This document shows positions 33,546 through 56,691 of a stretch of 64,000 nt of DNA, one piece after another. How positions within the stretch are numbered: the first letter of the stretch is position 1; every line of letters begins with the position of its first letter. A program made the position numbers and the translations under genes. Source of the stretch: Eledone cirrhosa (lineage: Eukaryota); contig OZ024741.1 of assembly GCA_964016885.1 (NCBI GenBank), positions 84,196,001 to 84,260,000 of the forward strand. The letters are read 5' to 3'. A model generated the notes under the pieces. That model did no database searches and was not told the origin of the DNA. It saw only the letters and a list, made by a program, of their open reading frames with translations.

Positions 33546-33613
<68 letters not shown>

Positions 33614-33650
33614 ATTAAATAAATGGAAACTATATTTATAAAACCATATT

Positions 33651-33716
33651 TATTTCATTATATATATTTCAGGGATATCATATTAACAATATGCTATGCC
33701 TTCCTCAGACAAAATA
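33651..33716 (-). ncRNA. Hammerhead ribozyme in 3' pLTR
   Basis: Same sequence as 38928-38993. Confidence 0.8.
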
Positions 33717-35087
33717 CAATATAAACAGTTTTATAGATAAATAGATTCGACATACCGTAACAACATCGACTTGTATTTGAAAAGGTTGATTTGGCAGTGA
33801 AAAAATTGTACACAGAGAGAAAGAAAGAGAGAAAAAAAAAAAAAAAAAGAAAGTAAGACAGAAAACGAAGAAAAAGAAGAAAAAGAAGAAATGCATGGAA
33901 CAAAATAGAGAGATGGAAAGATAGATAAAGAGAAGAACTTCATGTAAAGAAACAGAAAGAGATATATATATATATATAGAGAGAGAGAGGAAATAGAGAT
34001 AGATACATATATATATAGAAAATTAGGTAGTGGGACGTCTGTTGAGTAAACGTATCAATGATACATTTATTTATTTATTTATTTATTTAGCTCTAGTATT
34101 AATGTAAGGGAGATATATATAGAGAGAAAAAATATAGAGAGAGAAAAAATATAGAGAGAGAAAAAATTTAAAAATAACCAGATATAGGCGAGGCGTAAAA
34201 AACCCTATGTTTTAATGTAGAGGTATTAGTATTTATAAAAACAGCCACTATATTGTAAATATCAGTATTCCTGAATGAGACAAGTATCCATAATGTGTGA
34301 AAATTAATGATCTTATGTTTAGTTTTTTAAAAAAATTCATATGTTTATGTGATAGCTACAAACATCCATGTGAATCTACATGATCAACTCTGCAAACCCT
34401 AGGTTCACGGAAAACATTCTCAATGTGGTATAAACATTTAAGTATACATATATGTGTATTACTATTCCTGTCTTTACTCTACAAGATTATCTATCAAGCA
34501 GAAATAGAGAGCAGATTTCAGTATACTAATAAAAATATATATTAGAAACAAAACTAAAAAATAACAATAATAATAATAAGTAATAATAAAATAGAAAACT
34601 AAAAAATATTACGAAAGAATATTACATATTAAAAAATATTACATATTAAAAAATTTACATATTAAAAATATTAAAAATAAAAATATTAGAAAATACTACA
34701 ATAATAAAAATAAAAATAAACCACAAAGATCAACCCTTCAAAATTAATTGACAATATATTGCCAAGTTCATTATAAGCATCAGAGTCGAAAAACAGATAA
34801 AGCCAAAACATTATCTATCAAATCATCTCTAGCAAAGATCATTTCAAAAAAGATCATTTCAAAAAGTTTAGGATGCCCAATTTGGTCTACATGTGTTCTT
34901 ATATTTAATATAGAAGTTTATCTAGTGTAACGTTTATTCGAAATATTTGGAGCATCAGCTTTTAGGGTAGTTAATTTTTCATGAGGAATGTTTAAATAAA
35001 AATAAAATAAAAATAAAAAGAATAAAAAGAAGGAATCAAAGATTTATCGGCTAGTTTCCCATATAATTATAAATCAAACTAAATATA

Positions 35088-35753
35088 CTACATTTTAAAT
35101 TTAAATTTATATTTAAACGTTGAGTTTAATCTATGTTTGCAAAAACTGAATAAATTTGTCCGTAGATTAAGGGAATTTTTAGATTTTAGTATAAAGAATA
35201 TCTCCTCTGCGCAGAGGTCACATGTCTCAGAGGATGAATTAAAAGGAATCCCTCTTGAGACTATATTCCAAGCCGTCGAATATCTAACGTTATCTAGCTT
35301 AAGTTGCCAGAGTACGCCTGATAGTGCCGTTGAAGATTTTTTGCTTGGATCTGTGAAAGAATTCTTGTGGTTATTATAGCGAAGTTTAAATTCCGTCGAT
35401 GTGGAACCGACGTAGTTAAAAGAATTAGAGTCAGTATTAACATTACAATTGTATACTATATTTTTAACTAAGCAGTTGTTATTTAACGGACATTTAGATC
35501 TATCTCTACAGTTACATTTGTTAACTTGTATATTATTTATGCTATTATCACTAGGTTTTAAGTTCCTATTATTTATTCTATTAATATTTTGTGCTAAATT
35601 TTTGGTGGATGAGTAGGTTAATTTTATTGTATGTCTATTGAAAATTGAGTGATACCTATGTGTTCTAGGGAAGCGATTATCAAGAGCTTTGAAAAATAGT
35701 TTAGCGATGTGGGTTTTAATGTTTAGTGAGAAAGGGGGGGGGGGGCAAACCAA
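35088..35753 (-). CDS. PLE protein C-terminal part: thumb, linker and GIY-YIG endonuclease (out of frame with RT at a G12 run)
   Basis: PPFSLNIKTHIAK, IFNRHTIKLTYSS, CNCRDRSKCPL, NIVYNC...YVGST...RYNNH, CDLCAEE, CKH. Confidence 0.9.
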   Translation of the reverse strand: MVCPPPPFSLNIKTHIAKLFFKALDNRFPRTHRYHSIFNRHTIKLTYSSTKNLAQNINRINNRNLKPSDNSINNIQVNKCNCRDRSKCPLNNNCLVKNIVYNCNVNTDSNSFNYVGSTSTEFKLRYNNHKNSFTDPSKKSSTALSGVLWQLKLDNVRYSTAWNIVSRGIPFNSSSETCDLCAEEIFFILKSKNSLNLRTNLFSFCKHRLNSTFKYKFKFKM

Positions 35754-37306
35754 ATTATGTTCCTAGTTCTATTTCTTTTTTGGCCTTTGGAATTATTGTA
35801 ATGCTTTCTATTATAGTTGTTAAGGTTGTTGCCGTAATTAAAAAAGTTGTTACTTTGTTTAGTTTGTCTATCATTATCTATGTACACAATCTTATCAGCA
35901 TATCCTGCTCTAGCTAATGCTTCATTATAGTATTGGGCTTTTTCGTCGAAAATCTTTCTATTCGACGAGATCCTAGAGATACGTTTTTGAACAGAGTTTA
36001 CTATAGTGTTTTTGACAGATCTGGGGTGGTTAGAGTTAAAGTTGACATAGTTTAAGTTTTCATTCAACTTGTGAAAAAGATAGTGAAGACATGTGTTGAG
36101 ATTTAATGTTATATCTAGGAAATTGACTATTCTATGGTTGTTCTCAATTTCTATTTTAAGATTAAAGTAATTAAAAAATTGTGTAATTTGTTTACATTTT
36201 CTATTTAGTTCAGAGTTATTATTATCAATAAGTAAAAGCATGTCATCTCTATATAAACCTCCGGTAGTACCAGGTATTTTCCTATGTAGCGAATTGATTA
36301 AAAATAAGCCCACAAGGTCAGTTACCTGAGCTGAGTCGGATGATCCCATAGTTATGTCAAAATTGCTATCTCTATCTGCTCTGGTCCATAGTTGGTCATT
36401 AAATTCTATCAAAGTTTTCCTAGCCGATAATATAATATGCATTTCATTGCTAGTTAGGTCAGTATGTTTGAATGCGTAATTTAGTGCCTTATTTAGTAGA
36501 TTAGGGGTAATAGAAGAATAATAGTTAGCTATATCAAGTTGAATAAACTTATTATTATTGTTATATTTAATTTGCTTAAACCACTCAACAACCTCTCCAG
36601 TTCCCTTCCACAAGCTCAGGTTAGATAAACAATCCAAGTTCTTAATTTGCTGTATCACCCTGTCAAGAATGTTTTTGCTTAATTTGCCCAGGTCCGATTT
36701 TGATGGTGCGATCAATCTAACTGGCAGGTCATTTTCAAAATTCCTCTTGTGATCTTTCATATTGATCTTCGGTTTCCTGGGCACGAAAGGTTGTGTTCTG
36801 TTCTCAATTTCCAACTCGTGCATTATACAAGATGCTTCGACATTCATTTTCTCAAGTTCGGCCTTATCTGCTACCTTGTACTTTTTCCTCAGCTCTTTCA
36901 GTATCAGGCCATTATACATGTCTTTCTGCACTCCATAGAGGTTGTTGGTCTTGTCAGATTTCACCAAGATCTTCTCAGTTTTCTCTAAGCTCTCAATGTT
37001 ATCCTTAATGCCTTTCAGATATTCCTGGCCTTTGAAGTTTCTCTTGAATTTGACCCCTTGTATTATAGAAATTATATCGTTTTCAAAGTCAGATAAAAGT
37101 TTGTTAGGGGGTGGATTTCTTTTAGATTTGAAAACTTTGTTTAAGTCCGAGACATTTTCGTTTGTATTAGATTTATCAAAGTGGAATGCTCGCCACCTGA
37201 TTCTCCTTATAAAAGAGTCAGATTTATCTATTAATTGTTTTATAAAGTCTTTGTTTCTAGGTAGAGGTATGTCTTTTAAAGAGGAAGTAATCTTAAAGAA
37301 TTCCAT
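35723..37306 (-). CDS. PLE reverse transcriptase, 527 aa
   Basis: FIRRIRWRA, KSDKTNNLY, KDHK, LDIANYYSSI, TMGSSDSAQVTDLVG, LYRDD, VNFLDITLNL, SNHP. Confidence 0.93.
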   Translation of the reverse strand: MEFFKITSSLKDIPLPRNKDFIKQLIDKSDSFIRRIRWRAFHFDKSNTNENVSDLNKVFKSKRNPPPNKLLSDFENDIISIIQGVKFKRNFKGQEYLKGIKDNIESLEKTEKILVKSDKTNNLYGVQKDMYNGLILKELRKKYKVADKAELEKMNVEASCIMHELEIENRTQPFVPRKPKINMKDHKRNFENDLPVRLIAPSKSDLGKLSKNILDRVIQQIKNLDCLSNLSLWKGTGEVVEWFKQIKYNNNNKFIQLDIANYYSSITPNLLNKALNYAFKHTDLTSNEMHIILSARKTLIEFNDQLWTRADRDSNFDITMGSSDSAQVTDLVGLFLINSLHRKIPGTTGGLYRDDMLLLIDNNNSELNRKCKQITQFFNYFNLKIEIENNHRIVNFLDITLNLNTCLHYLFHKLNENLNYVNFNSNHPRSVKNTIVNSVQKRISRISSNRKIFDEKAQYYNEALARAGYADKIVYIDNDRQTKQSNNFFNYGNNLNNYNRKHYNNSKGQKRNRTRNIIWFAPPPLSH

Positions 37307-37320
37307 TTTTCCAGTTATAA

Positions 37321-37441
37321 TATAAAGCGCTCAACAGTATTGGAGCAAGATACATGGAAAGTTATATTTAAATTGTTGGGTTACAACTAGTAAATATTTA
37401 TAACTGATATAAAAGCACTCGACAAGTATTTGGAGTATATT
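37321..37441 (-). promoter_or_regulatory. Duplicated hairpin motif RCTC-CA...GAGY-GCTTT(T)ATAT in the PLE 5' UTR (candidate RT positioning signal)
   Basis: Copies at 37408-37437 and 37321-37347, each a few nt from an observed arm endpoint; function is inferred. Confidence 0.55.
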
Positions 37442-37484
37442 TACAATATTAAATAAATGGAAACTTTATTTATAAAACCATATT

Positions 37485-37550
37485 TATTTCATTATATATA
37501 TTTCAGGGATATCATATTAACAATATGCTATGCCTTCCTCAGACAAAATA
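37485..37550 (-). ncRNA. Hammerhead ribozyme in 5' pLTR
   Basis: Same sequence as 33651-33716, 3834 bp away. Confidence 0.8.
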
Positions 37551-38927
37551 CAATATAAACAGTTTTATAGATAAATAGATTCGACATACCGTAACAACAT
37601 CGACTTGTATTTGAAAAGGTTGATTTGGCAGTGAAAAAATTGTACACAGAGAGAAAGAAAGAGAGAAAAAAAAAAAAAAAAAGAAAGAAAGACAGAAAAC
37701 GAAGAAAAAGAAGAAAAAGAAGAAATGCATGGAACAAAATAGAGAGATGGAAAGATAGATAAAGAGAAGAACTTCATGTAAAGAAACAGAAAGAGATATA
37801 TATATATAGAGAGAGAGGAAATAGAGATAGATACATATATATGTTTTTCGACTCTGATGCTTATAATGAACTTGGCAATATATTGTCAATTAATTTTGAA
37901 GGGTTGATCTTTGTGGTTTATTTTTATTTTTATTATTGTAGTATTTTCTAATATTTTTATTTTTAATATTTTTAATATGTAAATTTTTTAATATGTAATA
38001 TTTTTTAATATGTAATATTCTTTCGTAATATTTTTTAGTTTTCTATTTTATTATTACTTATTATTATTATTGTTATTTTTTAGTTTTGTTTCTGATATAT
38101 ATTTTTATTAGTATATTGAAATCTGCTCTCTATTTCTGCTTGATAGATAATCTTGTAGAGTAAAGACAGGAATAGTAATACACATATATGTATACTTAAA
38201 TTTGTATACCACATTGAGAATGTTTTCCGTGAATTTAGGGTTTGCAGAGTTGATCATGTAGATTCACATGGATGTTTGTAGCTATCACATAAACATATGA
38301 ATTTTTTTAAAAAACTAAACATAAGATCATTAATTTTCACACATTATGGATACTTGTCTCATTCAGGAATACTGATATTTACAATATAGTGGCTGTTTTT
38401 ATAAATACTAATACCTCTACATTAAAACATAGGGTTTTTTACGCCTCGCCTATATCTGGTTATTTTTAAATTTTTTCTCTCTCTATATTTTTTCTCTCTC
38501 TATATTTTTTCTCTCTCTATATATCTCCCTTACATTAATACTAGAGCTAAATAAATAAATAAATAAATAAATGTATCATTGATACGTTTACTCAACAGAC
38601 GTCCCACTACCTAATTTTCTATATATATATGTATCTATCTCTATTTCCTCTCTCTCTATATATATATATCTCTTTCTGTTTCTTTACATGAAGTTCTTCT
38701 CTTTATCTATCTTTCCATCTCTCTATTTTGTTCCATGCATTTCTTCTTTTTCTTCTTTTTCTTCTTTTTCTTCGTTTTCTGTCTTTCTTTCTTTTTTTTT
38801 CTCTCTTTTTTTCTCTCTTTCTTTCTCTCTGTGTACAATTTTTTCACTGCCAAATCAACCTTTTCAAATACAAGTCGATGTTGTTACGGTATGTCGAATC
38901 TATTTATCTATAAAACAGTTTATATTG

Positions 38928-38993
38928 TATTTTGTCTGAGGAAGGCATAGCATATTGTTAATATGATATCCCTGAAATATATATAATGAAATA
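38928..38993 (+). ncRNA. Hammerhead ribozyme in the inverted arm
   Basis: UAUUUUGU-CUGAGGA-AGGCAUAGCAUAUUguuAAUAUGAUAUCCCU-GAAAU-AUAU-AUA-AUGAAAUA. Confidence 0.8.
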
Positions 38994-39120
38994 AATATGG
39001 TTTTATAAATATAGTTTCCATTTATTTAATATTGTAAATATACTCCAAATATTTGTCGAGTGCTTTTATATCAGTTATAAATATTTACTAGTTGTAACCC
39101 AACAATTTAAATATAACTTT

Positions 39121-39190
<70 letters not shown>

Positions 39191-44071: not shown

Positions 44072-44822
44072 TAGCATTAAAGCCCGCAATGGCTCGGGTT
44101 CAGTAAGTTACCTGGACTGCCGAAGCAGGAGCTGCGCCAGCAGTGACAATTGTAGTTTCGCCTATGGTTATTATCTCTGTGCAAAGAAGTGCTGGAATTT
44201 ATTGTTTCACAGTACTTGCGCAACACGCGCGTAGTCGATGCCAGCCGAACAATAGAGCCGCGATGGAGTTTTTCTGCATGGTTGTCTAATGTGTGTTTCT
44301 AAATTTAAGACAGTAGGGATGGGTGTGATATGGGGGAGAGTTAGCTGCTGTTTCTAGCAGGTTTAGTGACCTCATAGAGGATATTATTGTGTATAGTAAA
44401 TAAACTGATACTTCTTTCTTCCAAGTTCGTTGAGAGATGTTTTAAAAACGATTTATCGCTATTTGTGTTGTTGTTGAATAAATGTATATGTTGCTTTCCT
44501 CTCTTCTTTCTTCGGCGTTCCTAAAGGAAGTTTGTAAGTTTAAGCGTATATAAGAGAAAGTTGCAGCATGTATGTATTTTTATCGAATTTTAAGGAGACA
44601 GGTAATCAGATTGTATTAGAGGGGTAAAGCGTCATGTATTTAGTTTTATCGATTATTTCCGTAATTGTGGGTGAGTTTGAAATAAATAAATGGTGGTTGC
44701 CCTAAATTATGATATTTACAACATTCTTACAGAGGTTGTGTGGAATCGGTTTGAAATTGTGCAAATGTATAAAAATGAAACATGCACAAACACACACACA
44801 ACAACAATCTGCCTTTTATAGA
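44071..44822 (-). mobile_element. Non-autonomous Helitron-like element
   Basis: Minus strand starts TCTATAAAAGGCAG and ends with hairpin CCCGagccattgCGGG followed by CTAG. Confidence 0.65.
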
Positions 44823-45004
44823 TAATTGTTTCTACTTTTGGCACAAGGCCAGCAATTATACCAGTGTATTACTGATACTTTATTTTATCGACCCTATAAG
44901 GATGAAAGGCAAAGTTAACCTAGGCGGGATTTGAACTCAGTCCGTAAAGGGACGTAACCGTGCTGCAAAGCGTCCGACCCTCTACCGATAATACCAATCC
45001 ACCG
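44823..45004 (-). mobile_element. tRNA-derived SINE
   Basis: Same family as 2209-2398. Confidence 0.85.
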
Positions 45005-45069: not shown

Positions 45070-45077
<8 letters not shown>

Positions 45078-45505
45078 TAAATAGAAACTATATTTATTAA
45101 ACCATAATTATTTTATTATATATATTTCAAGGACAACCAAGGCAAATTATGGTGCGCTTTCATCAGACAAAATACAGATTTATTTCATGAATAAATATTG
45201 ACATACCCGGAGAAAAGACAACATTAGCGGTTGAAGCTTCCTGGTTAGCTTCAACCGTTAAGGTTGCCTTTTTACCGGATATGTCAATATTTATTTATAA
45301 ATCAAATATGTATTTTATGTGATGAAAACGCACCATAATTTGCCTTGGTTGCACTTGAAATATATCTAATAAAATAATTATGGTTTTATAAATATAGTTT
45401 ACATTTAATAATATATTGAATATTTACTCCACTCCTGTTGAGTGCTTTATATAAGTTATAAACAGTTTTAAGGTCGTTGAATCCCAACAAATTAAATATA
45501 ACCTC

Positions 45506-45510
<5 letters not shown>
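45070..45510. mobile_element. Older fold-back insert, Naiad-like pLTR subfamily, with HHR at 45109-45174 (-)
   Basis: Diverged arms at about 45070-45238 and 45248-45415; tail to 45510. Confidence 0.8.
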
Positions 45511-45556
<46 letters not shown>

Positions 45557-45561
<5 letters not shown>

Positions 45562-45994
45562 GAAGTTATATTTAATTTGTTAGGATACAACAAGCAAATA
45601 TTTTTATAACTGATATAAAGCACTCAATAAATTATTGGAGTAAAAATACAATATATTAACAAATGGAAACTATATTTATAAAACCATATTTATTTCATTA
45701 TACGTATTTCAAGGACACAAAGCAAATTATGGTGCGCTTTCATCAGATAAAATATAATATAGATCAGTTTTATAAACAAATATTGACATACCCATAAAAA
45801 ATGCGACCATGTCGGTTGGAAGCTGCCGGATAGTGGGGTTACTCAATATTTGTCAATATTTGTTTATAAAACTGATCTATATTATATTTTATCTGATGAA
45901 AGCGCACCATAATTTGCTTTAGTGTCCTTGAAATATGTATAATGAAATAAATATGTTTTTATAAATATAGTTTCCATTTGTTAATATATTGTAT
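45557..45994. mobile_element. Fold-back insert, Naiad-like pLTR subfamily, with HHRs at 45691-45754 (-) and 45885-45949 (+)
   Basis: Tail 45557-45645; arms within 45646-45994. Confidence 0.82.
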
Positions 45995-46019
45995 ATATAT
46001 ATAAATATATATATATATA

Positions 46020-56613: not shown

Positions 56614-56691
56614 AATTGCCTCGTCTGACGAACGAATGAGGACGTTTTTCGTATTCGTCTTATTCGGAAAAGCTCTGGTAATGAGGTAATT
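56614..56691 (+). ncRNA. Type I hammerhead ribozyme with damaged stem III
   Basis: AAUUGCCUCGU-CUGACGA-aCGAAUGAGGACG...CGUCUUAUUCG-GAAA-agcucug-GUA-AUGAGGUAAUU; 11-bp stem I. Confidence 0.75.

Follow-up and report, generated by a model that had tools for sequence, protein, structure and literature searches.

The insertion studied here, a Penelope-like element (PLE) of Eledone cirrhosa, raises the question of how an arm copied from RNA can begin downstream of a ribozyme cut, continue through that cut and meet the ribozyme a second time. It occupies positions 33608–39124 of the window (the whole analysed stretch of 64,000 nucleotides, contig OZ024741.1, 84,196,001 to 84,260,000, forward strand, assembly GCA_964016885.1) and consists of a long minus-strand arm (33608–37842) and an inverted short plus-strand arm (37844–39124) joined head-to-head. 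Positions within the element are given relative to the predicted cleavage nucleotide (0), with + denoting downstream. The cores of its hammerhead ribozymes (HHRs) were found at 38936 (+), 37542 (−), and 33708 (−), and counting along the core placed the cleavage nucleotides at 38985 (+), 37493 (−), and 33659 (−). The first-pass annotation had put a cut after 38985, arm ends at +51 and +139, and two same-strand HHRs 3834 nt apart, with both arms crossing the cut into the 3' untranslated region (UTR) and the long arm meeting the HHR twice. Its coordinates are correct: the inverted arm ends at 39124 and the long arm at 33608, both entering (TA)n, and the two minus-strand HHRs have the stated spacing. 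Both arms do cross the cut into the 3' UTR, and the long arm meets the HHR twice before it breaks off at 37842, leaving 349 nt upstream of the second cut. The last unambiguous base of the long arm is +49, a TA being common to arm and target. We infer that these arm ends are cDNA starts.

The preferred answer, to which a probability of about 0.6 is given, is that uncut linear RNA was the template of short copies and an HHR-cut, re-ligated 3.8-kb RNA circle that of long copies. How PLEs rebuild their pseudo-long terminal repeats (pLTRs) and what the HHR does for them are stated as open questions (PMC8557442, PMC11167929). The geometry of one locus proves nothing, because the same layout has been taken as uncleaved read-through in an anole element (PMC11167929). 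A young and abundant family allows the options to be separated by sequence, as its template classes can be told apart by where their 5' end lies and by the A>G changes that their ribozymes carry.

Copies Compared

The exact 42-nt HHR core gave 1910 matches genome-wide and none for the reversed control. Sample A comprised the first 100 of these matches, which form 60 clusters on contig C1; insertions of any length were taken, one intact core being required. Sample B was drawn without HHR selection. A 5' UTR pattern restricted to arms that extend to the start of the open reading frame (ORF) had 213 matches, of which the first 100 were taken; they contained 92 new regions, 5 regions from sample A, and the window. 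Three extra loci (L213–L215) lie outside both samples and were excluded from the second-lap count, and L198–L202, which have common flanks, were counted once; they go back to a single full-length insertion that, together with its flanks, was amplified five times as a segmental array (G000:C6:26.5-26.8 Mb). The repeated 5' ends seen at −438 and −478 reflect microsatellites at which the alignment breaks, and they were not scored as stops. The monomer is 3790 nt long with an initiator-like A at −138 in the family majority, and 3834 nt with the A at −139 in the window copy. Given the core matches against an empty control and the recurrence of both ends in almost every sampled copy, the feature in the window is neither chance nor an assembly artefact.

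Pairing of the Two 3' Ends

The 3' ends lie at about +49 to +51 or at +138 to +143 and adjoin TA that could pair with the target. Among 117 head-to-head insertions, 100 had one end of each kind, 2 had two short ends, 4 had one odd end, and 11 had one end missing from the fetched DNA; one short and one long end were thus present in 100/102 fully typed two-armed insertions (p = 2e-27). The two ends beyond the HHR correspond to the published PLE "tail" (PMC8557442), which is 88 nt here and 30–40 nt in the Hydra clade described in that paper. Strict one-of-each pairing was not found in the literature on PLEs, supplements being outside the scope of that search, and the two start sites and two-strand extension of the anole element (PMC11167929) are consistent with it. 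L148:5500-6100 is a tandem of a 169-nt unit (+30 to +198) that is devoid of the HHR and has ends at +138 and about +50.

Such pairs could in principle come from a single start of reverse transcriptase (RT), the other arm being a fold-back copy of the first cDNA with its end set by the endonuclease (EN). This explanation draws on near-symmetric centres in 3 of 21 long pairs (0.27 expected), on one exact hairpin-like junction that recurs 36 times genome-wide, three of them in one tandem, and on earlier proposals of EN-mediated resolution and self-priming (PMC8557442, PMC3846280). The arm lengths speak otherwise. In the 26 long-class pairs the longer arm was of either kind (14 versus 9, with 3 equal), and in 11 of them the +51 arm exceeded the +139 arm but fell short of one lap, which means that neither arm could have templated the other. 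That layout excludes fold-back copying, and therefore two cDNAs were made. Moreover, both strands were extended and both sites used by the anole element in vitro (PMC11167929), and symmetric centres are also expected from two RTs leaving one broken RNA end. A single RT start with fold-back is accordingly held to be very improbable for the family. The recurrent −137/−130 hairpin junction was also observed, with AT-rich filler, in three tandem 223-nt units at L098:660-1330.

5' Stops and Template Classes

In sample A, 23 of the 79 arms reaching −130 stop at −130 to −139 (mode −137), beside a TCACT motif, and there is no pile-up at the cut, within 6 nt of which only 1/75 arms stops. The −137 stop covers at least five haplotypes and is seen also in single-arm copies. 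A GTATGT motif 42 nt downstream of the stop site is kept in 52/53 internal copies, and a diverged sister-family relative in the window has an arm that stops at CACT, with this donor motif following 43 nt further on. In Penelope, the splice donor lies 46 nt after the mapped start (PMC2377424). The stop at −137/−138 is best read as a putative transcription start, a branch point or a nuclease site being the other readings.

The stop sorts the insertions into classes. The 48 arm pairs comprised 10 stop-stop, 3 stop-shorter, 5 shorter-shorter, 26 long-long, and 4 long-shorter pairs; stop-long pairs were absent, against an expectation of 13.6 (0 of 100000 shuffles; the two borderline arms, at −143 and −145, were scored long). 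On the second lap, 2/59 arms stop at the start site (p = 8e-5) and 57/59 go beyond it, up to about 1.5 laps. Because stop-long pairs are absent and second-lap stops so few, the stop is a property of a class of RNA molecules and not of the sequence. Over the same sequence, arms are truncated about three times as often on the second lap (0.0022 against 0.0007 per nt), as expected if the cDNA already made has to be displaced by the RT. No two independent long insertions have a junction in common. Two simpler origins of the short class were rejected: one non-autonomous subfamily, because many haplotypes occur and tails swap on the same junction, and palindrome deletion, because single-arm copies end at the same place.

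These counts bear on a strong-stop transfer, in which the RT would start near the 5' end of an uncut RNA, run off at the start site and then jump, guided by homology, to that RNA's own 3' pLTR; RNAs lacking an acceptor would give the short class. Such transfer would account for allele sharing between repeats (see below) and for extension past the start site. The stop at −137 is real, one locus (L131) suggests a jump from there, a full-length copy with G at both cleavage sites exists (L246), and uncut RNA is a substrate in vitro (PMC11167929). However, both arms would always have to jump together, against the complete lack of mixed pairs, and the second jump would almost never fail. The conservation of the ribozyme core and the scarcity of cleavage-site G in long copies would also go unexplained. 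Strong-stop transfer is therefore regarded as unlikely, while remaining a serious competitor of the two-template reading.

A candidate intron beginning at the GTATGT donor (window 38889 onward, +) would enclose the HHR and the +51 site, and a spliced mRNA would therefore escape cutting. The one predicted spliced junction tried (donor −96 to acceptor +89) had no genome matches, and the intron keeps its candidate status. If the two-template reading is true, a circle that needs the unspliced HHR region would also explain intron retention. Drosophila virilis Penelope likewise has a start inside the pLTR, a splice donor about 45 nt downstream, and an intron retained in genomic copies (PMC2377424); that element belongs to a different clade and its start and intron were mapped, whereas both are putative here.

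Allele Sharing Between Repeat Copies

Alleles were compared over −140 to +44 in 45 insertions having one internal and two terminal pLTR copies; two further insertions were skipped as composite or decayed. Variants present in all three copies numbered 268 (229 common, 32 rare, and 7 private). Single-copy variants numbered 20 in the internal copy only and 15 and 28 in one or the other terminal copy, while 2 variants were confined to both terminal copies and 3 to the internal and same-arm copies. The ratio of 268 all-copy to 2 terminal-only variants indicates that a single stretch of RNA was read twice. Had two donor pLTRs been inherited linearly, terminal-only variants should be in excess and private variants should never occur in all copies. 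Real indels near the cut are rare (3 in 331 HHR copies, none in internal copies). More-than-unit copies with identical repeats and a seamless junction, as in a retrozyme-type cycle, are thus present, the longest being about 1.5 laps, with no multimers. No informative donor for placing the seam by donor–daughter tracing was found.

Plain read-through, in which uncleaved multi-copy RNA from tandem loci would be copied once with the HHR idle and the pLTRs equalised by gene conversion, is the scenario put forward for the anole element (PMC11167929) and is probably true of the short class here. For the long arms it fails, since one stretch was read twice, the second start site was passed in 57/59 arms, and no junctions are held in common. 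The long arms also lack inherited donor junctions, except for a segmental duplicate, terminal-only alleles are not in excess (2 versus 3), and no array of at least two full monomers occurs among the 100 long-arm matches listed (of 213). As an account of the whole family, plain read-through is given hardly any credence. The first-pass annotation had offered a circular RNA, a template jump, and uncleaved read-through as alternatives. For one template they are not: uncleaved linear RNA appears to be the template of the separate short class, and read-through cannot explain the long arms.

Hammerhead Ribozyme and Its A>G Variants

The ribozyme has the layout of a type I minimal hammerhead, with a CUGANGA, GAAA, and UH core and stems I and II. 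The Rfam search of the window gave no HHR match (below cut-off), and a single-copy fold did not adopt the active shape; the HHR call consequently rests on the core motifs and on variation in the family. Template-borne variants fall at 0/11 catalytic positions versus 55/262 positions, the N7, loop and bulge positions vary, and three stem I variants retain pairing. In sister families stem II is altered and the core is kept. The palindromic stem III would form a duplex of −3.2 kcal/mol in the predicted dimer, and self-cleavage is predicted to occur in that form.

G at the cleavage nucleotide (0G) was found in 54 matches, compared with 7 for G two places upstream, 4 for C or T, and 5964 for the wild type, and on at least eight backgrounds. 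These 54 matches represent 40 insertions, 16 of which have G in both HHR copies; 14 of the 16 are confined by the start site and 2 are not (L235 and L246). All 12 head-to-head pairs with 0G were short by spacing, versus 9/32 pairs among the wild-type matches (first 100 listed; p = 1e-5). The +9 A>G variant had 441 matches and was short in 30/38 pairs (first 100 listed), with rough rates of 25% of short and 3% of long insertions. Both arms carried it in 6/7 informative insertions, as did both tandem copies in L160 and in L246, a full-length single-arm copy at G000:C6:50912000-50921900 that has G at 0 and +9 in both tandem pLTRs. Internal copies rarely carry either change (1 and 0 of 53 for 0G and +9G).

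Both changes are A>G on the sense strand, recur on many backgrounds, are seldom internal, and mostly affect both arms. This pattern is consistent with adenosine-to-inosine (A-to-I) editing of the template and with one RNA having served both arms; the +9 A>G variant is also consistent with that RNA being read twice by one RT. Rare template-borne variants showed no general excess of A>G (12 A>G and 9 T>C of 51), which leaves the two sites as the basis of the editing reading. Editing may block cutting or may simply mark uncut RNA. A broader and frankly doubtful proposal is that host editing of the ribozyme blocks cutting and diverts the RNA of a PLE that uses a 3.8-kb circle, two RTs, and two fixed sites into dead-end 250-bp insertions, a switch against retrotransposition that would be fossilised in the genome.

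Proposed Cycle

End pairing, allele sharing, stop positions, and class structure are properties of the copies themselves, and the cycle proposed to unite them is built of putative steps. Transcription would begin 138 nt upstream of the cut, at the initiator-like site. An RNA with both pLTRs would pair its two hammerheads, be cut at both, and be ligated into a circle of about 3.8 kb. Two RTs, primed from both strands of the cut (TA)n target, would then copy one circular monomer, one starting at +51 and the other at +139, and both would cross the ligated junction. Once past one lap, an arm would restore the upstream pLTR, even the part that precedes the start site, and the two cDNA ends would be joined head-to-head. 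An RNA escaping cutting would stay linear, and both RTs would run off its 5' end to give the short class of about 250 bp. RT starts, transcription start, cleavage, ligation, the use of one RNA for both arms, and editing are what we infer from the pattern.

If the template is a circle, the cut should cause neither stops nor scars, the start site should halt no arm on either lap, alleles should be shared, the HHR should be conserved, and drop-off should rise after one lap; all of this was seen. Nearly the same predictions follow from a nicked circle, that is, an HHR-cut linear monomer whose ends are held by stem I pairing and whose gap is jumped precisely by the RT without ligation; allele sharing, seam position, and HHR dependence would be alike. 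The near absence of stops at the cut and of junction scars in internal copies is at odds with it, and end-to-end jumps by non-LTR RTs usually add or lose bases. The nicked circle is considered improbable, more so than strong-stop transfer. The earlier suggestion that rolling-circle or jump-based copying regenerates the partial tandem is thus supported for the long arms by allele sharing and second-lap passage, a circle being more probable than a seamless jump.

Several points weigh against the two-template reading with an RNA circle. The circle, the cleavage, and the start site are predictions from genomic sequence. A comparison with four contig sets of unspecified kind revealed no joints and is uninformative about expression. 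None of 97 arms has two full laps, the longest having about 1.5, though a small circle would allow more. The single-copy fold gave z = +1.2, and invariance of the HHR core is by itself weak, suggestive evidence (about p = 0.08). The short-class enrichment of +9 A>G confounds the cleavage-site test, the difference between 0G and 9G not being significant (p = 0.17). Two insertions with template-borne 0G pass the start site, L235 to −199 and L246 at full length, and G17 impairs minimal HHRs with exceptions and is partly tolerated in tertiary-stabilised HHRs (PMC3884650). At L131:5660-6310 (G000:C1 near 271.046 Mb), a +51 arm stops at the start site and resumes at about +310 in the ORF, probably by a jump from the RNA 5' end (or by a deletion with that breakpoint), and such 5'-end jumps probably occur. 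For the anole element in vitro, insertion was unaffected by HHR mutants, the substrate was mainly uncut RNA, and none of the reads started at the cut (PMC11167929).

Relation to Known Systems

A circular-RNA model for PLEs, with cleavage, ligation, and more-than-unit reverse transcription, was proposed in 2014 (PMC4209133), and RNA circles with RtcB ligation have been demonstrated for metazoan retrozymes (PMC7229834; preprint 10.64898/2026.07.22.740005). Like the element in the window, those systems have a minimal type I HHR for which action in dimeric form is predicted (PMC4209133, PMC7229834). The autonomous PLE circle is a proposal in PMC4209133, whereas here the putative circle has support at population level from genomic copies, together with a second, linear template class. 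The element is a 3.8-kb coding monomer and not a non-coding array of 170–400 nt tandem units, and hence is not a retrozyme, yet it may work like one.

The anole Poseidon element PAc resembles it in having two RT start sites past the HHR cut that match genomic ends, extension of both target strands, and usable uncut RNA (PMC11167929). PAc differs in showing no strand preference between the start sites and in the multi-copy linear RNA proposed for it; here one end of each kind is found, and long copies need one stretch to be read twice. A two-template cycle could reconcile the 2014 circle proposal with the in vitro use of uncut RNA reported in 2024, where the templates had a single HHR. It also supplies testable coordinates (start −138, cut 0, RT starts +51 and +139, 3.8-kb monomer). 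No published PLE circle, strict end pairing, or link to editing was found in the literature searched, most subscription journals being outside its coverage; within it, the two template classes and the case against read-through appear to be new, while the ends and the circle idea are already published.

Coding Region and Clade Placement

The window ORF is out of frame at a G12 run (35734–35745). A stop-free frame of 744–750 aa is present in 26/73 cut-to-cut stretches of other copies, 3 of the 73 not being true monomers, and the homopolymer, which lies between the RT and the endonuclease, has lengths of 6 to 16 nt in the 91 copies compared and is a frameshift hot spot. The single ORF encodes an RT and a GIY-YIG endonuclease, with YRDD and IVY...YVG motifs, as in EN+ PLEs. 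The ORF had 149 protein homologues, one of which carries PF00078; the best named ones, labelled Argonauta hians, were 35–41% identical. Pfam gave no match for the two ORF pieces of the window, and nothing useful was returned by Rfam, Pfam, PDB, and phage searches with the window element.

The layout, with pLTRs, a partial tandem, an inverted 5' copy, and a one-sided tail, is that of EN+ PLEs. Hydra-clade features include KSDKTNN, a variant RWR, the CNCRDRSKC linker, one C between IVY and YVG, CDLC, CKH, (TA)n targeting, and the HHR. The element is a new member of the Hydra clade of C-terminal EN+ PLEs, placed by motifs and not by a tree. The clade as described (PMC8557442) is alike in its RT with C-terminal GIY-YIG, DKT, RW[K/R], CxCX5C linker, lack of CCHH, CxxC and CxH, and HHR, as well as in (TA)n targets, a partial tandem with an inverted 5'-truncated copy, and a tail at one end only. 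Hydra elements are generally under 3 kb (PMC8557442), in contrast to the 3.8-kb monomer with a long 3' UTR found here.

Organization of the Locus

The insertion is flanked by (TA)n target microsatellites, evident from the sequence and assigned to no strand, at 33547–33607 (left) and 39125–39155 (right). The long arm comprises 349 nt of upstream repeat (pLTR), one 3834-nt cut-to-cut monomer, and 51 nt past the cut, ending at the putative RT start +51. Following its minus strand, the segment 37589–37632 holds the initiator-like A (37632, putative transcription start) and a candidate splice donor (37589), the arm extending about 210 nt past the start. The internal HHR copy (37478–37559; core start 37542, predicted cut after 37493) is followed by the 5' UTR downstream of the cut (37307–37492), which holds both putative RT start sites (+51 = 37442, +139 = 37354). 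The ORF, with its RT and C-terminal GIY-YIG-type endonuclease and the motifs DKT, RWR, YRDD, CxCX5C, and CxxC/CxH compared with PMC8557442, spans 35088–37306, and the remainder of the long AT- and pyrimidine-rich 3' UTR spans 33799–35087. The 3' pLTR copy contains the initiator-like TCACT (A at 33798) and the candidate donor GTATGT (G at 33755) within 33755–33798, and the type I minimal HHR at 33644–33725 (core start 33708, predicted cut after 33659), whose stem III palindrome AUAUAUAU points to predicted dimer action.

The head-to-head junction (37842–37844, no strand) has an overlap or filler of at most 1–2 nt. The inverted plus-strand arm (37844–39124) begins in the 3' UTR at −1136 and contains the initiator-like A at 38846, the donor at 38889, and the HHR (core 38936, cut after 38985) before its end at +139. 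Three older or sister-family two-armed short insertions lie at 6505–6960, 45075–45530, and 45560–46010, each with one short and one long end. A further CTGA.GA...GAAA motif at 56625 (+) is unrelated to the Penelope family studied. A short dispersed repeat, presumably SINE-like (short interspersed element), is present in two copies at 28583–28709 and 44822–44949.
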